Assembly: GCA_001938485.1 (NCBI GenBank)
Contig: MQRK01230191.1
Span: forward strand, 23,341-87,340
Source of the DNA: Girardia tigrina
Taxonomy: Eukaryota
Direction: 5' to 3'
Length of the DNA stretch: 64,000 bases
Shown: positions 13,801-62,256 of the stretch, piece after piece
Position numbering within the stretch: the stretch's first letter is position 1
Layout: the number at the start of each line of letters is the position of its first letter
Notes under the pieces: generated by a model
What the model was told of the DNA's origin: nothing
Database searches by the model: none
Seen by the model: the letters and a program-made list of their open reading frames with translations, nothing else
Program-made: the position numbers and the translations under genes

Positions 13801-16800
13801 GACAAAGAATAATGCTTGCTAACTCCTTGCTATGGCCTTAATAGTTTGATATAATAAAAAAGTTATTGTGTTATTATGATCTAGTCTTTGTTCAGATTTC
13901 CGTCAATTTGAAGGTCTAATTAAAAAGTTATGATGTTTTTAAAACTTGTGCACTTTTTTCGTGGACACACCTTAGATAATTAATAAAATAGGCAATTTGA
14001 TGCTTAAAGATTATTAAAATTTCTAGTTTATATTTTTTAATTTTTGTACATTTGAAAGACAGTTCTTAATCTAGTGATAATTAGAGTTAATAATTAAATT
14101 TTCTATCAATTGACAAAAATCTGCTCAATGAAAACTTTATAACTATAATTTCTTAATTATAAGTTAATAAAACCTTCAAAATTTATGGCACAAAAAAGTT
14201 ATTTACATCACTCTTCTCATCGATTGAAAGCTTCCTTCTTGCTCGATTCGCCAATATTATTGGAGTTACTTCTTTTTTTACATCAGTCTTAAATTTATAA
14301 TTTTCAAGTAGTTCTTTTCTGATAATTTAATTTTAATTTAGTAAGAATCATAACAATTTATTTACCTATCAGAAGAATAAGTATTTGTTTCACTGTCATA
14401 TTCATTTGTGGAATTGGAGTAAAAATTATTTGGAAAAGATTTTCTCTGTTTAGAATGAGGATGATTAGATTTCACTAAAAAAAGTAAAATAAGAATTAAA
14501 ACAAAACTATTATAAAAAAATACAATAAAAACGAATGGTGGTTCTCATTAATTTTTTTGACAAAGCAAATCAGTTTCACCATTACGAGACATTCAGAGTA
14601 ATTAAAATAAAATGATTAATTGCTATTCATACATGTAGATGTGTTCTTTAAAATCGATAGATACTGGAGATATTATTTTGAATAAGATATTGACGGCAAA
14701 AACTACCGGGAAAATTTCATTTAAAGTGTCGGCAGTTGATGCGAATAAATCGACAGCGAGTGATGTGTCGAGTGAGACCGAGGTCGTCACTAACGTGGAC
14801 GCTATCAACGATAATAGACCGAAGAGTTTAAGTCGAATCGGACGTCGGACAACGGGTCTGTGTTGATGATTAGGATTCGAGAAAACGAGCCGAGGCAGAA
14901 GTTTGTGGAGATTAAAGTGAACGATGAGGATTTGAGTGATAATGGCAAGGTGAATTGTGAATTGAAAGAATCATCGGTGTTGGAATTGAAGTCGATTGGC
15001 AGTAAAGATCTCGATTTGCCGGAAGATGAGGATGAAAAGAAAAGGTTGAAGGAAAAGACACAGAATTGCAGATATTCATAAAAACGCTTTCTGTCAAAAC
15101 AATTACCTTCGATGTGAAGAATCGAGAAACAATAAAACACATCAAAGCAAAAATTGAAAACAAGGAGGGAACTCCAAGTACCCTGCAAAAATTATGGTTC
15201 ACTGGGAAAGTTTTAAGAGATGAAATGTCAATAAAGGAGAGCAATATAATCAAGAATGCTACACTTCATCTTCTGTTTTGCCTGAAAGGAGGCATGGAAA
15301 TGGATGAAGATGAATTAGATAGAAAAATGCTTTGCCGAAGGAGTTCAAAAGATAAATTATTACAATTAAGAAGCAAGCTTGGACATGCGGAAATATCAAC
15401 TGAAGAACTCAATAGAACGATGGTTTCGTACAACGAAAGCTATATTGAAGTGCTGAAGTATTTCGAATCAATGGCAATTAATCCCAAGCGGTTAAAGAAA
15501 AAGGAGTATAGCTTAATAATCGACAAGGAGTTGACAAAATTAGAAGATCAAAAGGAATAGGTGCTGGCAACTGCAAAGCAGAGATTCAACATCAATCATA
15601 AACAGATCAAAGAGGAGGAACGAGTGCAGGCGGTGGAAGATAGAATTCCCATAAAATTCCAACCGGTAACATTACCCAATTTTTCTGGAAATGTGGGTGA
15701 GTATGAAAAATGAAAGCGAACTTTCGAGGCATGTGTCGATTCCTCGAAGATGTCAGATATTGTGAAGCAAATAATGTTGGATCAATGCCTTGTTGGCGAA
15801 CCAAAGACATTGATCAAAAATATCGATATAACCCAAGAATCCTACAAAATGATATTGGCCAAATTGGACAAACGATATGGAGGTGCTCAGAGGCAATACG
15901 CCAATTTAATGAGAGAAATAAATGAGTTCTTTCCAGTGAGGGCAAATAAATTAAAGGACCTAGAATGTTTCGTAGGATTGTTGGAAGCTATTATTTCCAG
16001 ATCAGAGAATAATAACAATGAAGTGGAGATTGAAGGAGGATTACTATACATTACTTTGTTGGCAAAATTACCTAAAGTTTTAGTCGAGTGTTGGGAGAGA
16101 ACTCGCCTTTCAAAAGGAAAACCTCAGAATTTATCAGTTTTAAACGATTGGCTGATAAATGAGGTAGAAATAAAGCGGACCGCTGCGGAAGCTGTTCGTG
16201 GTATCGGCATATTTAATCCCAAAAATCGAAAGAAACATATTCAAGAAATATGTAGTGGAAAAACCTTTTTTTCAAAAGGAAGAAAAAAGAGCAGCTCAAC
16301 CTGAAAGAGAATTTGGAAGGACACTATGTTGGGATTTTCAAAAAGGAGTTTGTAGAAGAGGAAATGCGTGCAGATACATACACGATTTAACAAAGGAAGA
16401 AAGTCCAATCAAATGCAAATATTTCGAATCCGGCAATTGTAGATTTGGGAGTAACTGTAGAAACCTACACTTGAAAAAGGATGTTTTAAATTCAGATCAA
16501 AATAAATACACGGAAGGTAAAGAAGAGCGAAAAGACAAAACACCAGAAGGAGAGTTTAATCAGATTCCGAGTGGTGGGACATTTGTCACTGATCTCATGG
16601 AGGAAAATGAATTCTCTGTGTCCTTGAGAACTGTGAGGAATATTTTAAATTTCGTATGTTGAAATTGGTTTGTTGAATTTTGTATGTTGAGTTTAGTATT
16701 TGGAAATGTGTTTCTCCCACCCAGATGGAAAATTGATATTTTAGATGTNNNNNNNNNNNNNNNNNNNNNNNNNNNNNNNNNNNNNNNNNNNNNNNNNNNN

Positions 16801-19800
16801 NNNNNNNNNNNNNNNNNNNNNNNNNNNNNNNNNNNNNNNNNNNNNNNNNNNNNNNNNNNNNNNNNNNNNNNNNNNNNNNNNNNNNNNNNNNNNNNNNNNN
16901 NNNNNNNNNNNNNNNNNNNNNNNNNNNNNNNNNNNNNNNNNNNNNNNNNNNNNNNNNNNNNNNNNNNNNNNNNNNNNNNNNNNNNNNNNNNNNNNNNNNN
17001 NNNNNNNNNNNNNNNNNNNNNNNNNNNNNNNNNNNNNNNNNNNNNNNNNNNNNNNNNNNNNNNNNNNNNNNNNNNNNNNNNNNNNNNNNNNNNNNNNNNN
17101 NNNNNNNNNNNNNNNNATTATCAATTTAGAACGATGTCGAATGACGAGAGTTTCGCTGAGAGTTGTCCAAAAGACAATTCTGATTGTAATGAAAATAAAA
17201 GTTTGAAAAGCCATGTTGGTGTTCTTAATAAGAACCATTCCCGTTTATCTAATAAATAAAGGAAATCGACTCAGAGTGAACCTGTTACTTGATGACGCTA
17301 ACACAAATTCTTTCATAATTAAAAATGTGGTTGACAAGTTGGGTTTAGTCGGAGAAACCAAAGAAATGAAAATTCGAGTTTTAAATGGTACCAAATCAGT
17401 AAAAGCTGATAGAGTAAATGTTGAACTGAATTCCACAAATGGATCGTTAAGACAAAGACTGAGTCTCTTAATCGTTGATGATGTAACTGAGACTAAAAAG
17501 TGTGTGATTGAGAAAAAATAAAATGCAAATGGCCACACTTGAAAGACATTCCGTTTGAAAATTTTGGAAAACAGAATCAGATTGATGGGCTTTTAGGAGC
17601 AGATTATTTAAATCTACAATATTCTATGAAAGAAGTTCAAGGACGATTAAATGAACCAATAGCTCGATTGATACCGCTCGGGTGGACCTGCGTTGGTAAA
17701 GTTTCGACAGAGAATTCATAAAAGGAGCAACTTTATGATGTGCTTCTTTACTGGAGAGAGACAACATAAGTCACAGGAATCAAGCGAGGCAAGTCGATTC
17801 AGGGCACATAATGGTGAACGACAGTTCAGAAAAGACCGAGTCAATGGAGAAGACTATAATCGAGTCAAATATTTTAAGGGTCAATCAAGTGTTAACTTTA
17901 ATCAAATTTTAAATGCTCCTCCGTACAGTAATAAAAATGATTTTGAAAACAACAAAATGGGTTACTTGGATGAAAATTGTAAAAATCGAGAATACAGAGG
18001 ACGAGATTGTTTTAAGGGAGAAAGAGGATTGTGTAGAGATCAAGGTGATTACCGACGACCAAGAGACGATGATCGAGGCAAAAATGCTAACGAAGGATTT
18101 TTTAACAATATGCCATTCGACAACCGTGAAATACCTATTACTGAAAAAGAGTCGGATTCATACAAAGATTATGTCGAGGCATCAGTCAAAAATGAAGCAA
18201 ATTATGAACCGAATGTTGTGGAAAATGAAACTATTGATATGACAAAATCGAGTTGGGGAGAAATTGAAGATGATACTGTGAAAATAAAAACCACTGAGAT
18301 TAAATTCCTTGGACAGTGGAAGGCTCACCATGGGAAAGATCAGCTAATGAATCAGAATAGTAAAGAAATTCGAAAAGCTAATGATGGTCCAGATGTTTTC
18401 AGTGGAACAGAGGAATACAGAAATGAGAGTTCTACTAAAGAACATACTGATGAACATGATGCTCATAAAAATCAATACGGTCGTCAAAAGCAATCGCTTA
18501 AAATGTTAGTTCGTTTTAGACTAATATTTTGGCGAGGTGAGTGCAAGTGGTCATGGCGAGGAGAATGTGAGTGTTCATGGCGAGTTGAGTGCAAGTGGTT
18601 GTTACGAGGATGGTATGGAAGGACGCGGCGAGGAGAACACTGTCGGAACGAGCGAGGAGACGGCGAGCATAGAGGGTCAACAGAGTCAGGACAATTATAC
18701 GGTATTAAAATTTTTTTCAAACTTTACATACTTACTCATTCTCGATGACAATAAATGATTATATGAAAATTTGATCGGAAAAAACCTTTTAAGATCCCAA
18801 AATGGGATAAAAACGGAAAATTTGGAGTTCCAGAGCAATATTAATTGTAAGATATCTACTTATAATTTATAAGTAGTCTATATTATTTTTTTGTCTAAAT
18901 TAAAATTTTGCATTGTTTGTTAATGTTGCGGCAGTGTTTTTGAAGTGCCTTTTTAAAGATAACAACTTTGTAACTGAATGCGCTGATGAATAATGTCACC
19001 CTCCGTCAAAACACTCACTATGTCACATCTCTCGGCCCACGAATAATGGTTGTTCTATTCAGCATCAAAACATGAAGTGTCAAATAATACGGGTCACAAT
19101 TCACCATTGGCAAGCTGAGTCTCCATCTCGTGTGATTGTATGCGTGTGTGAGTGTAATCCATCACTGATTATTGTGCAATTACACTTTTATTTGTCCTCA
19201 ATTGCTGACAAATAAAGCGAAATTACGTGAAATTATTATTATCAAAATTAATTAATATTAAATTTTTATTAGTTTTTTAATTAAACTTTTTGAAATTTTA
19301 AAATCTTTGTCGGCAAAGTAGAGTTCTGTCTGCATAAAGAATGGATATAAAAAATTTAATTTTTTGATTTACTAGTTTTATATTGAAAAAATGTCTTCTA
19401 GTTAATTATTAATAAATAATTATGATTAGTTAAAGCAATAATTAAATCAAATAAAAGTTTGAAAAAACAAATAATTAAGATAAATCACATTAATCATTAA
19501 AATAATAATTATAGCTAAATTTACTCGAATGTTTTGGTTCAGAAAATCCTAAATTTTTTTGATCAGCTAATTTGGAGGACATTATCTTTTCGAGATTTTT
19601 CATTTTCTCCGACATTTTTATAATATTATTAAGAATATTGTCGGTTTGTCGATTAGTATTTATCGCATCTTTTATGTATTTTCTGCTTTCTAGATCGTGC
19701 ATTTGCAGTTCGTCAACAGTCATCGGCTCCCAAGCTGCCAATTGACGTTCTTGTTTGATCATTATAGTTCAATATTATAGATCAAGAGTTGTTAGAACTT

Positions 19801-37200: not shown

Positions 37201-40200
37201 AAAATTGGCAGATTATTAAAATCAAAATTCGAAAGCCAGTTGAAAATATTTATTAATTTCGACGGTTTAACCGTCATCAAATGATTTTTCAACAAATGAT
37301 TTTTCAAACGAAATTTACTTATATAGTGCAGTTAATGATTATGTAATCAATACATAATCAGTACATCATTTAAAAACTCTCAACAAAGTTGTAGAGAATG
37401 CAGTTTGAACGTTAATTTTAGGATCCAAAGATCTTATATATAACACTTCACATGTCACTCTCTCCCAATAATTTTTAAAATGAGTGCACAGAATTTTAAA
37501 GTGTTGTGAAGTTATATCTCCTTTACAATGTCTTCTATATCCTGCAATGTTATTTCCACCTTCATTGCGACTGTGTTCTTGGATTCTCTTACTGAGATGA
37601 CGTGAAGTCTCTCCAATGTATGTGGCGTTACACCCATTAACATGTATATTGGTAAATGAGATCCGAACACATTCCCAATGGCGTTGAAGATTTATTGCCA
37701 AACATACTTTCAATTTTCTGGGTACGGGATATTACTTTTAAACTTATTGCATTATCAACGCTTTCAAAATAGAATTTTTAAATATTTTAAACCCGTCTAA
37801 TATGGCACAGTTAACACAACCAATTCCCAAACTTTTATCATTAGTGTTGCAAGATTGCTCTTGATCTTGAACATCTAAAATTTTAGTATTACTTTTTTTG
37901 TCATACATATTAAGCAATTTAAATTTATAAGTATTTCTTAAAAAATCAAAAATTCGATTGACTATAAAAGAAAATTTAGTTTAACAATTTAAATATCGCA
38001 AATTTTAATACTTGAACTTTGGAGAGACAAGTCATTACTTTTGTACTAGAATTACTGATGTTGAGATAAAATAGTTCAATTATGGAATCTATTGATCCCT
38101 CTATGATAGGCATCAGTATATAAAGTTTTATATCACAATTTTACCGGCTTTTTAACTCTTCATTTAAATAATAAATATTTTTTTATAATCTAAAGGAAAA
38201 GAATTTCTCAAAGGCTAAGAACTTTTCTATCGAGGTTCAGAGAATTTCATTTAAATTATTTATGATAATTAAATATTTTTTTTGCAAAATAAAATCTACA
38301 TAGATCAAAAAGAAAACGGACCAAGGATAGACACAAATACAAAAACTCATAAGCATTCAGTTTTGAATAATTTGTTTCATATTAGATAATGATGATTTGT
38401 ATTCGTAAATATTATAATATGAATATTTAATATATAATAAGACATAAATATTAGTGTAGATTAAATAATGTCCAAAAATTCGAACTTAAATATTTATAAC
38501 GGAATTGTGGTACAACTTATTTCGAAATTGGAATTTAAAATGAACATTAAATTATTTTTAAATTATGAGATATACCTTTTGAGAAATACTTATAAAGATC
38601 ATAAGACTTGTTTCATCACCAGTACTTGCAACAATATTATGTTCAAAGGAAATATTAAATAAATAAATAGTCTAATTTAGATATGAAAACACTAAAATTT
38701 TAATTTAAATGTTACAATCTTACTGAATCACAGAACTGATAACACCATAAAGAAAAAGGTTCAAAGATTTTAAAGGTTTAATAATTTTAAATTTTATTGT
38801 TTTGCATTGTTAGATTTACTTATTGTCTAAATAGTTATTAAATAAAATAAAAAGGAACTTGTAGTAAACAGCATGACTTTTTGCAACAACTTATAGTTTA
38901 AATGTATTTCGTTAAGCAAAATAAAAGAAAAGTTAAAAAAATCGATATAAAATGAATAGTTAAGGAAAGCATTTTCCATTTGCCTTTCAATATAAACTTA
39001 AGCAATTAATAATAAAATAAAAATAATACTAATCTAAATTTAAATAAAAATAAAACAATAAAAATAACAATATCTTTCATAATGATTTTAAACCGAATTT
39101 CTTTTCATTCTTTGTGTAATTTAAAAATTAAAGATTAAAAATAAAATTGAAGACTACTTTATTTTTAACAGATTAAAATTTTAAGAAAAAAATCTATTAA
39201 TCAATTACTCTACATGGACTAAAAATTTAGCCAATCCATAAATAATATATTCATGGAACTCATAGTAAATATGTTCTTAACAGCAGTGACACTATTTTTC
39301 CCGAAAATAATCATAAAGGACAAATAAACGCGTGATCAAAATGAGTCGATTCTGCTGTAAATAAATACTTCGCAACTTTTTTTAATTTATTTTACGAAAG
39401 TTTGTTGATGAATTAATTTTTTTCTGTTTTTTTTAATATTTAATCAAATTAATTTATAAGATAATTTTTTAAAATGAAATATATAAAATAACTTTTGTTT
39501 GGTAGATCCAGAAAATTCGTCCTCAGAAAAAAATTTGTTTTTACTAGTGTTTTTAAAATTTTATTGATCAAAAATAAAAGAATTATGAGGGACAAATTTA
39601 TGGATCCAGAAAAATATAAATTATTATATTCGAAATTTTAAATTAAATTAAGTGCAAATCGAAAATTATAATAGATTCATAAGATGTATTGAGATTTGTT
39701 TCATTTTAATTTTGAATTTTAAGTGATTCCCTTCAAGAATATATCACAAGACTGCGTAAGTCTACGATCATTCTAACTGTGTTGCAAATTCAGATATTTT
39801 TCTAATTAATATTAAGAAAAGTTAATACTTAAAATAGTAAAAGAATTATAAGATTAGTAACTCTGATTGTAGACATCAGTTGCCTAAATCTTTAAAAACT
39901 TTGTACTTATGTGATAATGAATGTAAAAATTTATTGAACAGATTGATTTGATATCAAAATTACATTATGGTTGAAATTAATTTCATCGATTTACACATGA
40001 TGGAAACATAATATGATCCTTTTTTTAACAAAGCAATTAATAAATATTTATGCATTGGTTTAAATTTCAAAAAAAATCAAATTCGTATAATCTGAAGAAA
40101 AGCCCATTCCCAAGCTGTTCTAATAAAATCAATTAAAGCATACTTAAATGAATCATTATGGAATTAAGTATTAATGTTACTTTTCCAATAATTTTTATCC

Positions 40201-46068: not shown

Positions 46069-47310
46069 CGTGGTGCGATCAATAAGTCCTTAGACTCGAC
46101 AAGAAAGCAAGGTCCAATCAACTTTATTTTTTCAGAATCAGTACATGACATCAAAGTCGATCATTTCTCAATGTATGGACCGTGTACATCAACACACTTG
46201 TGCGAGCGAGCAACAAGCTCAGAGAACGCATTTTTGTAAAAATTGGGAGGCAAAGAATTGAGAATATCAAGGACTTTATCCTTGAGGACATCAATTGATT
46301 GAAAGTAGACACCTTTCAAATGTTTCTTTAGGTGTTTAAACAACGCAAAATGACCTGTGGCTAGGTCAGGGTTATAGAGGGGGTTGGAAACTAACTGAAA
46401 GCCTTAGTCATCCACAGCAGTCAAAGTTGCTCGCGAAGTATGAATGGGTGCATTGTCATTGTGAGGAATATTTTAAATTTGGTATGTTGAAATTGGTTTG
46501 TTGAATTTTGTATGTTGAGTTTAGTATTTGGAAATGTGTTTCTCCCACCCAGATGGAAAATTGATATTTTNNNNNNNNNNNNNNNNNNNNNNNNNNNNNN
46601 NNNNNNNNNNNNNNNNNNNNNNNNNNNNNNNNNNNNNNNNNNNNNNNNNNNNNNNNNNNNNNNNNNNNNNNNNNNNNNNNNNNNNNNNNNNNNNNNNNNN
46701 NNNNNNNNNNNNNNNNNNNNNNNNNNNNNNNNNNNNNNNNNNNNNNNNNNNNNNNNNNNNNNNNNNNNNNNNNNNNNNNNNNNNNNNNNNNNNNNNNNNN
46801 NNNNNNNNNNNNNNNNNNNNNNNNAAAAAATTATCAATTTAGAACGATGTCGAATGACGAGAGTTTCGCTGAGAGTTGTTCAAAAGACAATTCTGATTGT
46901 AATGAAAATAAAAGTTTGAAAAGCCATGTTGGTGTTCTTAATAGTCATGAAAGAGCCACAATGGTTTCCCTCTTGGTGTCCTACGGAACTTTCTCACATC
47001 TCGAAGTAATTCAACATAATACTCACTATTCATTGTCAGTCCTTTCTCAAGGAAATCAATTTTAATAATGCCATGGGAATCTCAGAACACAATCAGCATT
47101 GCTGATATCTTGTGCGAGGTGCCACTTCGAAGTTTTCGGGGAGCACTTTCACAGGGGAAACATCACTCAGAAGATTAACGCTTGCTCTCAGACACATACA
47201 AGCTCAACGGTTTCATCATGTGTAACTATGTTGTTAATGAAGCGATCATCATGAGTGCGAAGCAACTCCAAATTGGCAGTGCAACACTGCAAACGTTTAA
47301 ATTACATTTC
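46069..47310 (-). mobile_element. mariner transposon split by a solo LTR
   Basis: TA|CGTGGTGCG TIR; IVTHDET, HDNAPIHTS (after LTR excision), LFKHLKKHLKG..KCVDVHGPYIEK. Confidence 0.88.
46460..46943 (+). mobile_element. Solo LTR, same family as 16632-17230
   Basis: Near-identical sequence; 5-bp TSD GTCAT at 46455-59 and 46944-48. Confidence 0.9.
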
Positions 47311-50769: not shown

Positions 50770-51300
50770 TGTCACCAAAACAAATTCGTGTATTAATTTT
50801 CCTATGGTCTGATGCTCGTGAGACACTTCGACTCGAATAGGATTTTTAATACAAACTGTTTCGAGTTTTTCCAACTTATTTGTCATCGCAGCAGAAAATA
50901 AACACGTTTGATGTACTTTCGGTAAAAACGAAACAATAGTCTCTATATCTGTGAGAAAATCATCATTCAACATTCGATCGGCTTTGTTGAGAATAAAAAA
51001 GTCAACGATTTAAAATTCAACAATTACGTTTTATTGATGTGAAGACAAACTCGCCCGAAGTACCGATCCGCATGTGAAATTTATTCGACTTTAACAGTTT
51101 AATTTGATCGTTAACAAAGTCACCTCCGAGCAAAGTGACGACTCTCAGATCGACTTCTTCGCCAAATTTCATAAATTCGTTCTTTATTTGCACCGCTAAT
51201 TCGTGTGTTGGAGTTAAAATCAATGCAAAATTATATTTCGGTTTGAGAAACAATTTTTGTAAAATCAGAAGGCACCGGTTCTTCGTCCCGACCCTCAGGT
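50770..51300 (-). pseudogene. DDX47: DEAD-box helicase N-terminal domain fragment (DDX47/RRP3-like)
   Basis: FALILTPTHELAVQI, LLGG, NKADRMLNDDF (DEAD degenerate), TCLFSAAMT..NPIRVEVSHEHQTIGKL; frameshifted. Confidence 0.75.
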
Positions 51301-52895
51301 TGCCCCGAGAATCGGACGGAGGTAGCGTCATTGCGCAGTAGTTCTTTGTTAATATCGTTCGTGTGCTGGGCCCATGTTAGAAAAGGATTATTTGAATGGT
51401 TTATTTTTGATTTATACACTTTTTCAATCAATTTTTAACCAAGGTAACAATCAAGGTAATAATTAATGAAAGAAAAAAATCAGTTAAATTTTATTTCTTA
51501 ATTATTAATTTTATTTAAAATAAAAGGTCGTGAGGATATATTATCCCGTCGCCCACGTTAAAATTAAATAAGTTACTAAGTTTTTACCTTTTCTGTAATT
51601 GTTACATAAAGATAAATATACCTTTTTTTAAATAATTTCTTTTGTTTTGAATTAAATCTATATCCTTATACATAAATTGCGAATAATTACCCAATACCCC
51701 AACATTAAAGTGACCTCAATATTCTTGACTTACAACTTTAAAATCACATTTAAGAAGCACATCGAAGGCAAATGATAGATGCTTTTGATTGAATGAGGTG
51801 AAATCCATTTCTTCAAATCCTGATCTTGCCGTCGAAAAAAGCTACTTTCGGTGCCGAAATTTCCGGTGTTGATTGAGAAAGTTTTACAAAAATTCAACTT
51901 CTTTCTTTCATTTTCGAAATTACACTGACATTCATTTTATTGTCTGATTGTAGTCACCATTAAAATCAGAAGAAATAACCATTTACAAAAATGAGGTATT
52001 TTTGACAGTAACTAATGATTATTTAAATAACCATCTAACTTTTATTTGTTTTTGAATGATTATTTTTTATAAATATAACATCGTAAATATCCATCCAACG
52101 ATCCACACATGAGGTTTTAAAATGTAGAAATCTCCCCGCAACATCATCAAAACCATAATTTTCATGTTTTGCCGCCATTAAATTTGGAACAAATGAATAA
52201 GAATAATCATTGAATTTCAGTAATCTATCCATCTATTTATCCCTTTCTATTGGCGAAAGAAATCATTTTAGATATGTCTAATAATAGTCAAAATAAATTA
52301 AAATTTATATTAAAAATTTTATTAAATATTTCAAATAAATTAAAGACAAAAGTCGTCATAAAAATTATGTAGGAGCATCGTAGTCGAACAAGAATATATA
52401 TAGAAGGATAAAATGAATTAATATAAAGCAATATAAAATAATATTAATATAAAATAATAATTAATAATATTGTTAGGTATATTAAAAAATATGAATTAAA
52501 AATAAAAGTATTTTGTTTTAATTAATTGATAAATAAAACTTTATTTATCCTTCTACTATAATAAATATAGAGTATTGGAGAAATTCAATAATTGTATATA
52601 TAATTAATTGTAACTGAAATTAAAATTAAAGAATTATATATATTTATAAAAAAATAACTGTTATAAAGAAAGAAAAATTATTACAAAAAAAATTACTTTT
52701 GTTAATTGTTAAGAAAAAAAAGAGAGAAAAAGAAACTTATAAAAAATATTATGTAAAGAATTATATTTGTTATAATGTGTTAAATTAAAATTACAGTTTT
52801 GATAACCAATAAAGGTTTAATAAGGATATCGATTTTTTTAATTATACTAATAAACAAATTATCCATCAGAATATTGTATAAGATACCATTTCAAC

Positions 52896-53300
52896 ATGCC
52901 TTGGCTTTTAACTAGGGAACTTTACGTTAATGGATCTCAAAAATTAATGATAAATGCATTTAAATTGGCAATAGCAAGTCAAGCTTTTTGGAATCTGTTG
53001 CAATCAGTTGGCAGAGATGGAAAATTGAATTTTAACTGTGATCATCCGAAAGACCTAGAAATAATACTTCGATATGCTCATATCGGCGAAGTAGATGTGA
53101 CTCGTCAAAAGGTGGAATATCATGTTCTATATACGAACGAACAAACTGTTACCGAACACAAACAAAGAGACCTAAAAATCTCGGAAGAAATCAACCAATT
53201 AATGGGCGCAAGAAATACGGTCCTCTTAAGGACCACAATTGACGATTGTAAGCTGGAGTTTTGGACTGCATCCTCATGGACCCGGGTGCTGGTGATTAAC
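52896..53300 (+). pseudogene. Divergent BTB/POZ-like ORF
   Basis: AFKLAIASQAFWNLL..DLEIILRYAHIGEV resembles the BTB pattern vLaa.S.yF..l..ll.y.YtG.i. Confidence 0.5.
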
Positions 53301-53332
53301 AAAAGTAATTTTCAAGTAAATAATTTTCCAAT

Positions 53333-53350
53333 TGGTAGCAGAGCGTGGTT
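53333..53350 (+). promoter_or_regulatory. Primer-binding site for initiator tRNA-Met
   Basis: CA-AT-TGGTAGCAGAGCGTGGTT. Confidence 0.85.
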
Positions 53351-53458
53351 GCTCTGTTGGGAGCAACCGCGCTCGGACCCGCTCTATCTTTCGTCGATAG
53401 AGTGTTATTTAATATTTAATAAAATTTATATAATATATATATATTTATTTATAATAAA

Positions 53459-54200
53459 ATGATTGATAATAAGGACTTAAACGAATTGTCCATCAGTAAG
53501 AGCGAAATGTTTTCGCCGGGGCAATTCTAATCGGAAAGCGTTATCGAAGAGAATTTTATCGATTGCGGTATAAAAGACGTCGCGAATGTTCGATTGAGAC
53601 CGAACATTTCGACATTGAACTTACACTGTAATTCAATCATTGTTATTAGAGAATTGGATAATCTGAGTAACTTGAAGCATCTGGATTTGTCGTCGAATGC
53701 AATCACGAAAATTAGCGGTCTCGATTCACTGATTCATTTGAGAATGTTAAACCTAGCGGTGAATCGAATGATAAAATTGAAAGGATTGTCTCAATTGCGA
53801 CAATTGGTTAAATTAAATGCATTGTATAATGAGATTAGTGATCTAATGGGACTTAATGAACTCGCCAATACTCGCGGACAATCTTTGGCGTCCCTTGAGT
53901 TACACGCAAACAGAATCAGATTAACCAGTGATATCATAATAGTTTGTCAGAGACTCGGCAATCTTAAGATATTGATTCTGTGCGATGCGTATTCCAAAAA
54001 TCCAGTCTGTGGGACACCAGATTACCGACAAAAAGTGTTTTCAAGTCTCCCTCATCTGCGAATCCTCGACGACAGAGACAAGAGTGGTAAGTCGGTTGAC
54101 GTGAAAATCCTATCTGATAATCCCGGACTGGAACAGTTCATGGATTATCTCTCCAGCTCAACTGATCAATGTTCAGAGTTTAATTCCACCGTTAAAAACC
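53459..54200 (+). pseudogene. LRRCC1: Intronless N-terminal LRR region of LRRCC1/VFL1, in frame with Ub-Gag
   Basis: FIDCGIKDV..LNLHCNSI..LKHLDLSSNAITKISGL..LELHANRI..NPVCGTPDYRQKVFSSLPHLRILD..LEQFMDYLSSS follows the LRRCC1 N-terminus; in-frame ATG 53459, one TAA at 53528. Confidence 0.8.
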
Positions 54201-54343
54201 ATTTCAATGAACAAAAACTGATAGGATGGATTGGGAAAGACATGAAGCCTAAAATCATGAAAGTGAAAATAACAACAGTCAGAGAAAATGAAATAAAATA
54301 CGACCTCTTTGAAGATGAAATTAATTCTGCTGGGAAAAATCTC

Positions 54344-54568
54344 ATGCCCGTCTTCATTCGATTGATGGATGGACGGATTATAAGCATTGATGGGGCTGTC
54401 AACACGATAGCAGATATTAAGGAAAAAATATGCGAAAAAGAGAGAGTACCCATTCATTTTCAACAATTGATATTCCAGGGGAAGTTTCTGGAGAATAACC
54501 AGTCAATAGTTGATTGCGGTCTCTCCAAATACGCTACAATTGAATGTGTGGGGAAATTGCTGGGTGGA
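54344..54568 (+). CDS. Ubiquitin-like domain (75 aa, ends LLGG) fused to Gag
   Basis: MPVFIRLMDGRII..TIADIKEKI.EKE.VP..QQLIFQGKFLE..TIECVGKLLGG|M. Confidence 0.9.
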
Positions 54569-57500
54569 ATGGATCTACCAGAAGAGGAACCACAGATCAC
54601 TCTGGAACAATCAGGGCAACTCAGTNCAATGAANTTNCGGAAGTTGGTCCGACAAAAAGGAGAAGACAAACGGCAACTAACCTTGGCCTATAAACGGCTA
54701 TTGGATTCTGACATCTCTAATGTACAATGGTGGGGTTTACACCAGGAATATCAAGATAAATACGAAGATTTATTGGCAAGTTTCAAGGTACTAATGGAGC
54801 ATTACGATCATGTCGGGGATCTGGAGAATGCGAACAAATTGCAGGAAGAGATGGAGAAACTGGACCAGAAAGAGGAGGCGGTGACGGTTTTATATGAAAA
54901 ACGAATGCAAGTGAAAGAAAAATTAACCTCAGGACGGGAATCAAAAAAGATACATTCTCTGCAGAAGTCAGAGAAAGTAGATTCGGAGGATGCATCATCC
55001 AATATCTCAGGAGATTCTGTCAGCTCTTCGAGAAAAAGGAGGAGCTTGGCCAGGATGGAGCGCATCCAATTACCCGTATTTGGAGGAGCCAACAATGAGT
55101 ATGAAGCTTGGAAAGCGGCCTTCAAATTATGCGTGGATGAAACCTCCGCATCGGATCACGAGAAGTTGTTGTACCTGAGGAAATAAACAAGCCGAAAACG
55201 TCAGTAATAATAGACAAGAGTCAATGAACGAAGGATAATGGACATGTTTCCGATATCAAAATAGCCATTGTAATCATAAGGACTGCCGCTATCAGCAAGG
55301 GAAAGAACCAACCGAGCGATCGGAGTGTTGGTTTTTTAAGAAAGGAAATTGTCGAAGAGGAGATAAGTGTTCCTTCATCCACATTCAACCGACAGATAAA
55401 GGCGAAAAGCCAGTTAATATTGATGGGAACTATTCGGGAAGATCGTTTTCTGGAATGACGCAATCGAGACAGTTGGTGATTAAGCAGATCAGTATCTGCA
55501 ATATAAAGACAAACGGGTGTTAGCAAACGCCTTACTGGATGCCGGCAGCTCTACTAGCTATGTGAGTGAAAATATAATGAGTTTCTTAAAAATTCAAGGA
55601 AGACTAAGACAGCTTACTGTGGATACCGTCGGAGGCCGGGAATCAAAGTTACAAGGAAAACTGGTGGAGGTAGCATTAGAGAGCACGGACGGCAAAGTGA
55701 GGATTAGTTTCGAGGCTCTGGCGGTAAAGAATGTAGTCGGCAATTTGAAGGTGGTCGATTGGCAGTATGAAGCCAAACATTGGGAGCATTTGCGAGCTGT
55801 CAAGTTTCTGTCGTTCCAACACGGGAGGAAGGTGGATGTATTGATTGGAGCTGATTACCCGGCATTACACGAGGTGATCAAGGAAATAAAAGGAGAAGTA
55901 GGAGAACCAATGGCCACTTTAACACCTCTCGGGTGGACGTGTATAGGTGCAGTTGCAAAGACATCGATGAGCAATGATTGTAGGTACTTCGTTCGCAGCT
56001 ATTTTGCGAATAGAAAATATCTAGATACCCAGTTGGAAAAGTTTTGGGCGATGGACGAGCTTCCTGAAGCAAGTCAACCAACAATGTCACCAGACGAACA
56101 GAAAGTATTCAATTATGCGAACGTCAACATCCGGTACATAGATGGGCGGTACGAGATACCAACGCCCTGGCGAGAGGAACGCGATAACATACCGTCCACT
56201 CAAGGGTTGGCTGAAAGTCGCTTATCATCTTTGATGAAAAAACTAGCGAAGGACGAAGATCTAAAAGTCAAATATTCCAAGATAATAGCGGATCATCAAG
56301 CCAAAGAATACATATCAGAGGTGGAAAAGAATGGGAGCGGGAGCAGCGAATGGTTGTTACCACACTTCCCGGTTGTACGTGATGACAAAGAAACCACCAA
56401 AGTGAGGATTGTCTTCGATGCAGCAGCAAAAGTATCGGGCCGGTGTCTTAATGACTATATTCATACCGGGCCGAAATTACAAGCTAATATTTTCGCGGTG
56501 CTCTTACGTTTTCGGAAGCACCAGGTGGCAGTCATCTGTGATGTAAAAGAGATGTACCTTCAGATTGCGATACCAGAAGTAGATAGACCATTTCATCATT
56601 TTTTATGGCAAGTGGATGACGAGTTGAAGAAATTTCAGTTTAATCGTGTGGTTTTTGGAGTCAATGCGTCATCGTTTATGGCTCAATTTGTAAGCAAAAA
56701 CAACGCACAACAGTTTGCAAAGGAATTAGATAGAGCGAAAGAGACAATCTTGAAATCTACATATATGGACGATTGTATGGACTCCGTTTCAACAGTGGAA
56801 GAGGCCATTGAGCTAGTACGAGGATTAACTGAGATTGGGGAACATGCTGGAATGGAGGATCACAAATGGCTTACTAACAAACCAGCTGTGATGGAGGTGA
56901 TTTCAGTGGAGAAACGAGCGAAAGAGTTTCTATTAGAAGAAGAGTCGGAAGTTGCAGTCAAAACACTTCGGTTGAAGTGGTTAGCGTCGTCTGACTGTTT
57001 CACATTCGACGCATTGTCTAAGTTGCCTACGAAGATCACCAAACGTACATTCCTCAGTACACTAGCGAGAATATTTGACCCACTTGGATTTTTGGCTGCT
57101 TTTGTAATTCGAGCAAAGGCAATTACACAGAACATGTGGTTAGCCGGCGTAGGCTGGGACGATATACTCGCACCGGAGATCAATAAGGCGGCTCAAGACT
57201 GGATTTCAGAAATTCCTTATTTAAAGGATGTCAAGATTGACAGGTGTCTGATGAAGAGTGTGAGCAAAGAGATCGAGGTGCATTGCTTCGCGGATGTGTC
57301 TCAAATGGCATACGACACAGTTGCCTATTTGCGACAATTAAAAAATGGGTTATATGAAACAACAATAATAGCAGCGAAGAGTCGTGTTGCACCGTCCAAA
57401 GCGGTGAGTATACCGCGGTTGGAGTTGATGGCTGCTTGTTTAGCAGCACAATTGGCGGAAAAAATAACAAAGGCGCTGGAATTACCAATGAAGCAAGTGA

Positions 57501-58836
57501 CATTATGGTCCGACAGTTTTGACGTATTATTCTGGGTGCGAGAACAGTCAAGACGCCATAAGACGTTTGAAGCTAACCGAATTGGGACCATTCAAACGCT
57601 GAATCAGGCGGAACAGTGGCAGTACGTTCCGACGGAGGAAAATCCATCTGATCTGCTATCACAGGGAGTATCAGCGAAGGAGTTAACGGAACGTGAATTA
57701 TGGTGGCATGGGCCTACATTCTTAAAAACGACCGAAAATTGGACTGTTCAAAATGTGGAATGTCATTTTGCTCATAAGGAAAGACGAAAGAACGTCACAT
57801 TCTTCAATCAGGTAGAGTTGCGACAAGACAGGGTGTACAATAGATCAATGTGAAATCCAGAGACGTTTTCAAAATGGATGGATTTCGTACGTATACGGGC
57901 TTGGTGAGACGGTTTTTACATTGTTGCCGAAACAGAGTACGTTCGAATTCCAAAGAGCTAACGGCGGCCGAATTGGAGAAAGCAGGATCAGATATAGTCA
58001 AGGACGATCAAATGAAGTATTTGGGTACCAGCGAGAAGAACATTGACTGGACACGAAAAGTGAAATCAGATCATCCGTGGGGAAAGATGACGCCTCGGAA
58101 AGATGATTTTGGAATAATTAGAAGTGATTCTCGATTAGAGCTGCAAGGCAATTTCGAGTGGGAATTTCGACATCCAATCTTACTAGTTCCAGGATCGTGG
58201 GTCACACATCTTATAATTGGTCACTACCACTGTCAGAGAAAGCATTGTGCAAGAGTGAATCAACTATTTGGTGAGATTAGTCAGAAGTATTGGATTCCTA
58301 AATTCAGACGCGCGATCCGTAACTATGAGAGCAAGTGTATGGTTTGTCAAAGAAGGACAAGAAAACCTTTTGAAATCGTGATGGCACCGCTTCCAAAATT
58401 TCGATTGGAAGAGGGCGCTCGAGCTTTCCTACGAATAGGAATCGATTTCGCGGGACCCTTCGTTACATCAAATAGAATAGATAAGTCTTTAAATATCTAA
58501 CAGATTTGTATCGTGTACATAAATAAATACATTTTTGAAAATATAAACCTTCGTGTTTTGATTTCCTGTTGAACTATTTTATAAATCACCAATATCCCAA
58601 CAATACACACAGTGAAATAAAATAAGACTGGATTTTTAATACCGGAGCTGGGTACGTCCCTTACTTTCAGTATAGCGTCTCATGCTGAGTTAAGATAAAT
58701 TTTTTTTAAATAAATGTCTCATAAATTAATATATTAAAATTTATAATTCAATATTTATTAATTATAAAAATGAATGAAAGTTTTTATCACTACTTTTATA
58801 AGTGAAACAGAAGTATTTGTTAAAAATAAAGGTTTT

Positions 58837-59009: not shown

Positions 59010-59645
59010 CTATCGCCTGGCGTTCTTCATTATTCAGCTTCACTGGTCTCGTCCCACCTTTTCGTTTTGATTTTACCTCACCAGAACGTACTCATGAATA
59101 CGCTGTATTGAACCGCACGCCCAAGGGATTTTGCCAGTGGTATCCAATCATCCCATCTGTTTGAGGCCTCCACAATGAGTCGACGGTCCTTATCGGAGTA
59201 TCTTGTATACGTTTGCCTCTTAATTACTTCCCTTTCTGTAAGCAGTGAGCGACAGTTTGGGCAAGTTGCTTCCCTATTGGTGAATAAGACCTCACAGTAC
59301 TTCTCATGTAAGAGATGACAGCATGGGTCACATCTCACAACCGATTTCCGTAGCATATGCTGCATTTGTCTTGTAGATTCATTTCTAAAACTGAAGATTA
59401 AAATAAAACTAAAATAATATCAAAAAGTACCTCAGAAATTTAAAATGTAAAAATTAAATTAAAGTTAAAACAATTATGAAATATTTTTGTTATTCTTTGA
59501 AATACAATTTTTATTTTTTGAAATATAATTGATAATTTTTAAAATACAATTTTTATTTTTTGAAATACAATTGTTAATTTTTGAAATACAATTTTTATTT
59601 TTTGAAATTCAATAGTTATTCTTTGAAATACAAGTTGAAATGGTG
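59010..59645 (-). mobile_element. IS630/Tc1-like transposon 5' end with RING-H2 plus HTH, decayed
   Basis: TA|CACCATTTCAAC terminus, 21-bp array, ATG at 59382: CSIC / PCCHLLHEKYC..CPNCR..YSDKDRRLIVEA..LAKSLG / VRFNTAYS*VRSG..KGGTRPVKL. Confidence 0.7.
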
Positions 59646-61629: not shown

Positions 61630-62256
61630 ATAATTAAGAACGCCATTAAAATCAAATTTATTGCAATATATTTCGGTGTATTTTCCACTATCTTCAGGCT
61701 GAATTAACAACAATTTCGCTGTCTTATATATAGCAAATTGATGATTATGTAAACATCTTGCGTAATAACTAATTAAATTTTTTCAACAAATTGGAAGAGA
61801 GACTTGTTTGTACATTAATGGACGGATTAAGTGATTTAATCAATAATGCCTCACAAGTAACTCTTTCCCAAAAATTTTTAAAATTACTGCACAATATTTT
61901 AAAATTAGTTGTTTTCACCTCCGACTTACAACCCTTAATACATATATGAAGGGTTGTAAGTCGGAGGTGAAAACAACTAATTTTAAAAGATTGTGCAGTA
62001 ATTTTAAAAATTATTGGGAAAGAGTTACTTGTGAGGCATTATTGATTAAATCACTTAATCCGTCCATTAATGTCCAAACAAGTCTCTCTTCCAATTTGTT
62101 GAAAAAAATTAATTAGTTATTACACAAGATGTTTACATAATCATCAACTTGCTATATATAAGACCGCGAAATTGTTGTTAATTCAGCCTGAAGATGGTGG
62201 AAAATCCACCGAAATATATTGCAATAAAATTTGATTTTAATGGCGTTCTTAATTAT
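61630..62256. mobile_element. Palindromic pair of Penelope 3' ends/pLTRs
   Basis: ~310-bp near-perfect arms centred ~61943; right arm encodes FKNYWERVTCEALLIKSLNPSINVQ. Confidence 0.9.
62186..62222 (+). ncRNA. Minimal type-I hammerhead ribozyme motif (mirror copy 61663-61699, minus)
   Basis: GC-CTGAAGA-T-GGTGGA-AAA-TCCACC-GAAA-TATA-TT-GC, followed by AATAAA. Confidence 0.7.

Follow-up and report, generated by a model that had tools for sequence, protein, structure and literature searches.

The window analysed here, a 64,000-nt stretch of the Girardia tigrina genome, contains a decayed BEL/Pao copy in which an LTR, an initiator tRNA-Met primer-binding site (PBS), a fragment of LRRCC1, a ubiquitin-fold domain ending in Gly-Gly, Gag and pol follow one another (Table 1). 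As the original prediction had read it, a single open frame of 551 codons (53531-55186) leads from the LRR part (Pfam LRR_4, 5e-9) through ubiquitin and a Met into Gag, with pol behind; the frame, the Pfam matches and the tRNA complement all bear this out. The copy is damaged: the first ~55 nt of the 5′ LTR are unrecognisable, an in-frame stop (53528-53530) lies just past the LRR start codons, ~0.5 kb of gag is gone after 55185, and more frame breaks lie near 55480 and 57850. It ends inside integrase (about 58470), and no 3′ LTR, PPT or second LTR end was found within the window.

Table 1. Features of the BEL/Pao copy in the window
Feature	Position	Strand	Basis or detail
5′ LTR	52582..53330	+	84-91% match to 5′ and 3′ LTRs of sister copies; ends ...TTTTCCA
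BTB/POZ-like coding fragment within the LTR	52923..53120	+	PF00651 E 0.0055, below cut-off (weak)
Primer-binding site, initiator tRNA-Met	53333..53350	+	TGGTAGCAGAGCGTGGTT; complement of host tRNA-Met(CAT) 3′ end
Element leader, first in-frame ATG to start of captured mRNA	53462..53504	+	translation
Captured spliced LRRCC1 mRNA, start codon region and LRR domain	53505..54222	+	host exon comparison; 38% to mammalian LRRCC1
Microhomology, 9 nt, at the 3′ junction	54214..54222	+	AAAACTGAT; three-way comparison of window, host exon and L066
Earlier-cargo remnant (HSP90-family fragment) and linker	54223..54343	+	within 82% match to L066 from 54213 on
Ubiquitin-fold domain, 75 aa, ending KLLGG	54344..54568	+	PF00240 5e-14
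Gag N-terminal part, starting Met-Asp	54569..55185	+	DUF1759 in same frame of sister copy
Gag C-terminal remnant with CCCH zinc finger (about 55317-55385)	55186..55483	+	zf-CCCH PF00642 4.5e-7
pol: aspartic protease, reverse transcriptase (YMDD at 56762), RNase H region	55484..57853	+	DUF1758, RVT_1, Peptidase_A17; motif positions
Integrase: zinc-binding domain and start of core only	57844..58470	+	Integrase_H2C2 1.3e-5

Membership in a multi-copy BEL/Pao family

The window element belongs to a multi-copy family (F1) with paired LTRs. Its Ub-Gag DNA retrieved 130 candidates from the genome, 40 of which were scored and are 89-97% identical to it (the window itself excepted), and its PBS-LRR DNA retrieved 248, of which 40 were scored. 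Sister LTRs begin with TGTTC, end with TTTCCA and are flanked by 5-bp target duplications. In the sister copies C223407 and C192323, the LTR pairs are 96-99.6% identical, the duplications are ATTTG and AAAGT, and the PPT is GGGGGGAGAA, so that the paired TG...CA LTRs, PBS, PPT and short target duplication of the group are all present there. The BTB/POZ-like stretch, which is probably a captured host piece, recurs in both LTRs of C192323. The LRRCC1-ubiquitin junction is shared by dozens of independent contigs, and in sister copies LRR-Ub-Gag lies between paired LTRs flanked by target duplications, which rules out a single-copy or artefact origin. Contigs of the sequencing runs X4, X6 and X19 cover pieces of the LTR, ubiquitin and Gag; X6 is the only run recorded as RNA, and transcription cannot be read from contigs.

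Once CCA is added, the 3′-terminal 18 nt of a host tRNA-Met(CAT) found in the genome pair exactly with the PBS. The tRNA-Met(CAT) pattern has 13 matches in the host genome and none in a reversed control; of three pattern regions examined, ARAGORN called a tRNA in one and none in the other two, and one gave no Rfam match. The site belongs to the element itself, and families F1, F2 and F5 have the same PBS.

After gag, the pol order is PR-RT-RH-IN (domains at 55511, 56495, 57038 and 58207), and the Pao-specific profiles Peptidase_A17 (4.5e-45) and DUF1758 (9e-4) match in the window, while DUF1759 (5.5e-14) lies in a sister copy in frame with LRR and ubiquitin. BEL/Pao Gag usually has CCHC-type knuckles, a triple Cys/His knuckle being a typical marker, instead of which F1 and F2 carry CCCH fingers; the related F6 and F7 retain the knuckle array, judged by eye. 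The knuckle is treated as a variable marker in the relevant text of PMC2774666, and the CCCH fingers are taken as a derived change that does not exclude these families from BEL/Pao.

Spliced host mRNA ahead of ubiquitin

The LRRCC1 piece is captured spliced host mRNA, because a host intron of 5,670 nt has been removed from it exactly. The host exons on C216175 have AG/GT ends and match the cargo at 90% and 93%, and both exon joints (53799|53800 and 54020|54021) are spliced exactly; the host region is split by that intron and is not one exon duplicated at the DNA level. Mammalian LRRCC1 matches the cargo with an E value of 4e-33, and a host-mRNA-like contig (X19 record 10) begins to match the window at 53505. 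The first host LRRCC1 exon or exons were searched for in the genome and not found. Two marks of an LTR-mediated retrocopy are present, namely the loss of parental introns at exact splice sites and microhomology at the 3′ fusion point, the 9 nt being common to host LRRCC1 and the older cargo of L066.

The slot ahead of ubiquitin has held different in-frame cargoes, as the original prediction expected, and they turn over: LRRCC1, two HSP90-family fragments and one unidentified ORF were found. In F1 the slot has held an HSP90-family fragment, the ORF and LRRCC1, and in F4 it holds another HSP90 fragment. The upstream ORF of L066 matches PF00183 at 3e-7, and we take the HSP90-family remnant in the window to be TRAP1-like. 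The type-B cargo (603 nt) has no Pfam or Atlas match on either strand. A resemblance of the sequence upstream in L079 to LSm proteins was considered and dropped, there being no Pfam match.

The same elements have also captured host fragments, in frame and where there is no ubiquitin, both downstream of gag (on its 3′ side) and at the LTR end or ahead of it; ubiquitin is therefore not required for capture, and the idea that it permits capture is not supported. Housekeeping mRNAs captured by such elements include HSP90, HSP70, PRMT, PRS7, SMC, CCDC149 and USP9X-like. The LRR cargo has an omega of 0.56 (p 0.019) over F1 variants common to three or more copies, and of 0.22-0.45 for type A copies against the host gene, a figure that includes the host branch. 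Most likely the cargo merely travels along as a passenger and is not the reason for which ubiquitin is retained.

Ubiquitin and Gly-Gly in seven families

Seven diverged families in the genome have ubiquitin ending in Gly-Gly directly ahead of Gag; its identity to host ubiquitin is 34-96%. The Gag N-termini behind it are homologous, and only 16-39% identical to that of the window family. Ubiquitin is an old lineage trait, not something acquired along with LRRCC1, and the arrangement originally described is confirmed as real and as larger than that description. Among six control regions selected by protease, two carry ubiquitin, one has a broken Gag start and three are uninformative; both elements with an intact Gag start therefore have it. 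The Gag of the region with the broken start resembles, by eye, that of the ubiquitin-bearing L075.

Both glycines are retained in all seven families and are followed by Met or Ser; Pro, which would block cleavage according to the part of PMC5381556 that treats this point, follows in none of the family representatives. Since Ser takes this place in three of the seven families, and Met after GG is also the state of polyubiquitin, the release of a "native Met-Gag" was too narrow a wording. Gly-Gly is among the 13 of 76 host positions retained in all five diverged families. At the domain-average rate of change and with independent families, the chance of both glycines being retained is ~0.003, a value that is too small because the families share ancestry. 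In close F1 copies GG is intact at 32/37 loci, no more than expected of young neutral copies. The loci compared had been selected for long frames and long contigs. Five older F1-like copies, mostly with stops, all lack it (GR, GE, VG, SW, CG), as do L071 and L088; the source of L067-L069 may have lacked Gly75, because all three related copies differ there.

The F1 domain is identical to host ubiquitin at 27/75 positions. It retains Ile44, Val70, Lys48 and Lys63 and carries the substitutions R42Q, H68E, L71G, R72K and R74L, four of which (R42Q, H68E, R72K and R74L) alter residues contacted by USP enzymes, as described in the available text of PMC10611586. The tail and deubiquitinase-contact residues are canonical in F5 and nearly so in F3 and F4. 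Position 74 is other than Arg in five of the seven families, and is Cys in 5/5 copies even of the freshly renewed F4; R74C is a single CpG-type transition and may stem from drift. A model of the F1 domain built from an 11-row alignment is a whole beta-grasp (pLDDT 84.6, TM about 0.8 / 0.9 to ubiquitin), a likeness partly built in because the alignment includes host ubiquitin; the single-sequence model is poor (pLDDT 59.7). An origin from FUBI was rejected: aligned together, the domain is 19% identical to host FUBI (the host FAU was located), as compared with 33% for ubiquitin. The ubiquitins of F2, F3, F6 and F7 have no Met1 of their own and therefore must be read as internal domains. In F5, a ubiquitin remnant precedes the full domain; its junction is GS or GN in 6/6 copies having it, which may be one inherited mutation, and the Gag junction of these copies is GG in 5/6.

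Ubiquitin is under purifying selection. Over variants common to three or more copies, F1 ubiquitin has an omega of 0.27 (7 synonymous, 7 nonsynonymous; p 0.017) and F1 Gag one of 0.25. The ubiquitins of F4 and F5 share 70-73/76 amino acids and 83-92% of nucleotides with a host polyubiquitin unit, while their Gags are not one clade (p-AU 0.007, or 0.010 with a frameshifted row). The ubiquitin and Gag trees conflict, and on two or more occasions ubiquitin was replaced afresh from the polyubiquitin of the host.

Proposed processing, alternatives and known systems

The usual view of LTR retrotransposons is that an element's polyproteins are cut by the protease it encodes. We consider it probable that this BEL/Pao lineage holds ubiquitin as a fixed processing module directly before Gag, that a host deubiquitinase frees Gag, and that cargo is tolerated. 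Translation would begin upstream of ubiquitin, in the variable leader, and a host deubiquitinase would cut after Gly-Gly, so that the freed Gag would always begin at a fixed residue (Met or Ser). In-frame host mRNA fragments would be gained by template switching in reverse transcription and turn over, tolerated ahead of ubiquitin because, as proposed, anything there is cut away; ubiquitin may be refreshed through the same switching from polyubiquitin mRNA, which is abundant. Cargo would be expected to be in frame whether or not cleavage takes place, which counts against this reading. The predicted cleavage is least certain in the window family, because Arg42, His68, Arg72 and Arg74 are lost. 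In FUBI a non-polar residue before GG, as in the window family, is compatible with cleavage by USP16/USP36, according to the available text of PMC10611586.

Ubiquitin might instead remain on Gag, at least in the window family, as a built-in signal or folding aid that recruits ubiquitin-binding or ESCRT proteins or sets Gag turnover. We regard this as rather unlikely. The non-canonical F1 tail, its altered deubiquitinase contacts and the retained Ile44, Val70, Lys48 and Lys63 would suit such a role; a non-Arg residue 74 in 5/7 families would slow or restrict cleavage, and ubiquitin on retroviral Gag drives ESCRT-dependent budding (PMC3751857). However, a retained ubiquitin does not need Gly-Gly, which is kept in 7/7 families, the F5 remnant has lost GG where the Gag junction has kept it, and R74C may be drift. 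Alternatively, cleavage may occur with freed ubiquitin or cargo-ubiquitin as the selected product, a decoy or conjugate to host proteins like viral ubiquitins, and the freeing of Gag secondary. Such release would leave a free GG end, among single-domain PDB sequences F1 ubiquitin matches 6kna "Viral ubiquitin" best (5.7e-13; ubiquitin scores about 1e-9), and the LRR cargo is mildly constrained. Yet ubiquitins ranging from 34% to 96% identity to the host have no common decoy signature, the cargo turns over freely and the host branch contributes to the omega against the host gene; we judge this an improbable reading.

That ubiquitin is one more passenger without a role accords with the abundance of polyubiquitin mRNA and the many housekeeping mRNAs captured, but it is already largely refuted and highly improbable: position and register are the same in seven families, constraint equals that on Gag, GG survives at 34% overall identity, and the domain is present in both protease-selected elements whose Gag start is intact. 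An assembly artefact, or a host exon duplicated at the DNA level beside an unrelated element, has next to no probability. The assembly is fragmented (255,254 contigs) and no long read spans the stretch, but the shared junctions, the exactly spliced joints and the LTR-bracketed copies all speak against it.

The processing-module reading can be widened, with what we hold to be an even chance of being right: an LTR-element clade would mature its Gag N-terminus via host deubiquitinases, maintain the site by re-capturing ubiquitin from polyubiquitin mRNA and tune it by residue 74, and would thereby run an insulated N-terminal slot that continually samples, translates and releases host protein fragments. 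If a host deubiquitinase does make the first cut, these elements would depend on their host in a new way and would amount to a natural, heritable counterpart of the ubiquitin-fusion technique. Across the seven families the ubiquitins form a graded series (34-96% of host) in which GG does not vary, so that the requirements of deubiquitinases could readily be tested on them. Gene capture by LTR elements is of unusual scale in this genome, with a datable cargo succession in one slot, which makes it directly testable whether captured fragments are passengers or selected.

The element resembles known BEL/Pao elements (Belpaoviridae), as outlined in PMC3118150, in its LTR-PBS-gag-PR-RT-RH-IN order, DUF1759, DUF1758 and Pao peptidase, TG...CA LTRs and 5-bp duplication, and differs in the ubiquitin before Gag and the CCCH fingers of F1 and F2. 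A term search of the main texts of PMC3118150 and PMC2774666 found "ubiquitin" 0 times, and no earlier report of a ubiquitin-capped Gag was found in the open literature, Repbase, Dfam and GyDB lying outside that search. Searches elsewhere gave weak negatives: a cross-species Ub-Gag query (0/356 candidates), a metagenome scan (125 pattern matches, none confirmed) and the ESM Atlas (no usable match). The representative protein search was swamped by polyubiquitins, and among the 168 proteins compared only P0060, a 92% fragment of the window family, matched Gag; a Gag profile found one protein, P0169, again of that family; both are likewise weak negatives.

Among planarian elements, BEL1-I_SM of Schmidtea mediterranea also has a host gene fragment early in frame 1 (aa 115-194), from another gene, the FBgn0024733 / YLR075W homologue (PMC3597677, in part); neither PF00240 nor a ubiquitin gene is listed in its supplement 3. 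The giant Burro / GYPSM1 elements carry captured host domains in their polyprotein, including a Ubi2/SUMO-like PF11976 motif, but they are gypsy, not BEL/Pao, and the motif is found behind Gag, flanked by MATH and BCL-2; the available text of PMC6431247 proposes no processing role for it. LTR-mediated retroposition in animals, as summarised in PMC5131818, likewise yields spliced sense-strand mRNA in LTR elements, with junction microhomology, several parental genes and often in frame; those chimeras are single young retrocopies, whereas the cargo-bearing elements here have multiplied to tens of copies, and a conserved ubiquitin closes off their slot. In Ub-eL40, Ub-eS31 and FUBI-eS30 an N-terminal ubiquitin or UBL is removed after GG (PMC10611586 and PMC8354635, in the parts available). 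These are host genes with nothing ahead of the UBL, and the element domain does not derive from this host's FUBI. In pestivirus insertions, as described in part of PMC5381556, captured ubiquitin, often partial plus whole units, gives a polyprotein site cut by the host and tolerates varied upstream sequence. Pestiviruses are RNA viruses and these are sporadic recombinants, whereas ubiquitin here is a heritable, lineage-wide trait of a retrotransposon, renewed over time.

Structure and copy number of the element

The arrangement originally predicted for the window, host cargo joined to Gag through ubiquitin (Ub) in a BEL/Pao retrotransposon, is real and multi-copy, and its cargo is RNA-captured. 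The window copy carries the claimed PBS, complementary to host tRNA-Met(CAT), the claimed single frame through LRR, Ub and Gag, and the claimed downstream pol, with domains ordered PR-RT-RH-IN. This copy is dead: it has a stop codon at 53528 and additional frame breaks, gag lacks about 0.5 kb downstream of 55185, and the element terminates within the integrase near 58470 with no 3′ LTR.

The junction is not confined to a single copy: in the 1.43-Gb assembly, Ub-Gag DNA gave 130 candidates (40 scored) and PBS-LRR DNA gave 248 (40 scored). The 3′ LTR was reached in three sister copies, two of them with clear 5-bp target duplications (ATTTG and AAAGT); in these two the LTR pairs are 96-99.6% identical, and a polypurine tract is present. 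These features indicate recent insertion and join PBS, cargo and Gag in one element, so that the PBS does not belong to an unrelated one. The close copies examined are mostly non-autonomous, with a short RT stub after gag, and few carry the window-type protease. A CCDC149 fragment follows the RT stub in frame (PF09789, 2.6e-18, in the only copy scanned), and likewise in P0169, a protein of the window family.

Features of the window and of loci fetched from the genome (L numbers)
Feature	Position	Details
5′ LTR, start eroded	window 52582-53330	sister-copy LTR comparison
PBS	window 53333-53350	
Open frame, LRR + Ub + Gag	window 53531-55186	551 codons
LRRCC1 exon before host intron	window 53800-54020	90%; AG and GT ends in host
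LRRCC1 exon after host intron	window 54021-54222	93%
CCCH zinc fingers, nucleocapsid position	window 55317-55385; L099:1786-2400	F1 (one), F2 (two)
Type-B cargo ORF	L014:2133-2735 (minus)	603 nt
CCDC149 fragment in frame with Gag, in place of most of pol	L007:2814-3599; L052:1-196; P0169	non-autonomous F1
Intron-free host fragments upstream of PBS/leader	L086:1-225; L089:575-1315; L088:573-1349; L087:3-200; L083:212-343; L061:174-965	F5 and F2 copies
DEAD-box helicase exon upstream of element, opposite strand	window 51017-51376 (minus)	PF00270, 2.5e-9
Inverted repeat, near-perfect	window 61654-62231	287 nt, 4-nt spacer
Arm related to inverted repeat	window 37370-37500	
Short ORF, weak RING match	window 59078-59419 (minus)	0.019
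Pieces related to repeat adjoining this ORF	window 16699-17231; 46527-46944	

Elsewhere in the window, the inverted repeat within a Tau95/GTF3C5-like gene region is probably a MITE or foldback element. The RING-like ORF and its adjoining repeat family, which occurs three times in the window, are likely another transposon remnant.

Origin and turnover of the cargo

The LRR cargo is spliced host LRRCC1 mRNA rather than one exon duplicated at the DNA level. In the host gene, located on contig C216175, a 5,670-nt intron separates two exons whose junction in the element is exact, the intron being precisely removed. At 5.67 kb, this intron also shows that host introns are not limited to the ~50-bp kind noted originally. 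Gap-free matches to 53575/53625-54222 were found in contigs of two further sequencing runs, of which the X19 contig runs on into host sequence past 54222. At the 3′ capture end, nine bases are common to the host exon and the older cargo of locus L066, matching the junction microhomology that PMC5131818 gives as a signature of template switching.

The cargo slot upstream of Ub has turned over. The window family shows four arrangements: the commonest, type B, with LRRCC1 codons to window 53979 and a 603-nt ORF; type A, that of the window, with a longer LRRCC1 piece; a longer HSP90-family fragment in L066 (PF00183, 3e-7), probably TRAP1; and, in L063, an ORF together with that same HSP90-family fragment. 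The LRR and Ub frames agree in 18 of 28 loci, with modal spacings of 783 and 1098 nt, and no stop interrupts them in 9 of 28; a single 798-codon frame of one sister copy spans LRR, Ub and DUF1759. The F4 cargo is HSP90, again in frame (PF00183, 2e-28). The 603-nt ORF had neither a Pfam nor an Atlas match; its reading frame stays open in register with Ub, and in part on the opposite strand as well.

Conservation and renewal of ubiquitin before Gag

Ub ending in GG before Gag is a conserved, renewed trait of a BEL/Pao lineage, found in seven Girardia tigrina families (F1-F7, with the window copy in F1). Searches with the window Ub and with PF00240 gave 1,743 and 3,445 candidates (150 scored in each), from which 20 and 13 were fetched, picked by long contigs or long frames. 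Ub was followed by Gag-like sequence, called by eye from the translated sequences, with DUF1759 or BLAST confirming part of the calls, in 20/20 and 9/13, the remaining four being host-type polyubiquitin. GG was intact in 13/20 and 8/9 of these, and in both informative loci among six fetched as a protease-selected control. The exceptions are six first-set copies, of which five are F1-like and older and the sixth belongs to F2, together with L088 and a truncated copy.

Junction residues and Ub identity to host Ub by family
Family	Last Ub residues	First Gag residue	Ub identity to host
F1	KLLGG	M	34%
F6	RLKGG	M	50%
F3	RLRGG	S	59%
F7	RLQGG	M	69%
F2	RLKGG or RLRGG	M	73-81%
F4	RLCGG	S	96%
F5	RLRGG	S	96%

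Ub is under selection. In F1, omega from shared variants was 0.27 for Ub, 0.25 for Gag and 0.56 for LRR, and 0.66-0.79 for the three from private variants; Gly75 and Gly76 belong to the 13 host positions retained in all five diverged families. Arg74 is replaced in five of the seven families (F1 Leu, F2 Lys, F4 Cys, F6 Lys, F7 Gln), in F4 despite an otherwise host-like Ub; cleavage tuning or a conjugation block is possible, or the changes may be drift.

The Ubs of F4 and F5 share 83-92% nucleotide identity with one host polyubiquitin unit, host units being ~15% apart from one another. Their Gags do not form a single clade (p-AU 0.007 on a short alignment with long branches, frameshifted row L043 left out), and within F5, L084 versus L083/L089 gives a dN of 0.035 for Ub and 0.46 for Gag. 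This combination indicates at least two Ub replacements from host mRNA, or exchanges between elements, always in register. Six F5 copies contain an upstream Ub C-terminal remnant, where the junction is GS or GN. In loci L081 and L093, host-type ubiquitin is followed by a second, diverged Ub unit and then by a tail of unique sequence; their codons differ from those of polyubiquitin locus L092 (75% nucleotide identity).

Capture outside the slot and known systems

mRNA capture by these elements occurs everywhere. Upstream of the PBS or leader, F5 and F2 copies contain fragments of PRMT_C (two different parts), PRS7_OB, HSP70, SMC_N and a USP9X/FAF-X-like gene; a BTB-like piece lies in the F1 LTR, the one fragment with a demonstrated location inside an LTR, and CCDC149 lies 3′ of gag. 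Since host fragments occur at all these places, the proposed Ub cut would not explain capture itself. At the nucleocapsid position, F6 and F7 retain a knuckle array; CCCH zinc fingers take its place in F1 and F2, which looks like an exchange of the RNA-binding module.

The simplest reading is that a host deubiquitinase (DUB) would cut after GG by the ubiquitin-fusion rule, freeing Gag. Gag would thereby be shielded from the leader, and this would account for the turnover of cargo there. Ub is most plausibly a module for processing Gag, and cargo tolerance a side effect of it.

Searches of the open literature, a scope that takes in neither subscription papers nor bioRxiv supplements and none of the databases Repbase, Dfam and GyDB, turned up no account of Ub preceding Gag in BEL/Pao, and a Repbase entry could exist. 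Protein, metagenome and Atlas searches established no Ub-Gag beyond Girardia tigrina. The nearest precedents are the captured host fragment of BEL1-I_SM (PMC3597677) and the internal SUMO-like motif of Burro polyproteins (PMC6431247). Putative cleavage is least certain for F1, which has a non-polar residue before GG as in FUBI, where, according to PMC10611586, this residue restricts cleavage to USP16 and USP36. The same source describes maturation of FUBI-eS30 by a DUB cut after GG, and pestivirus Ub insertions operate by the same rule (PMC5381556).
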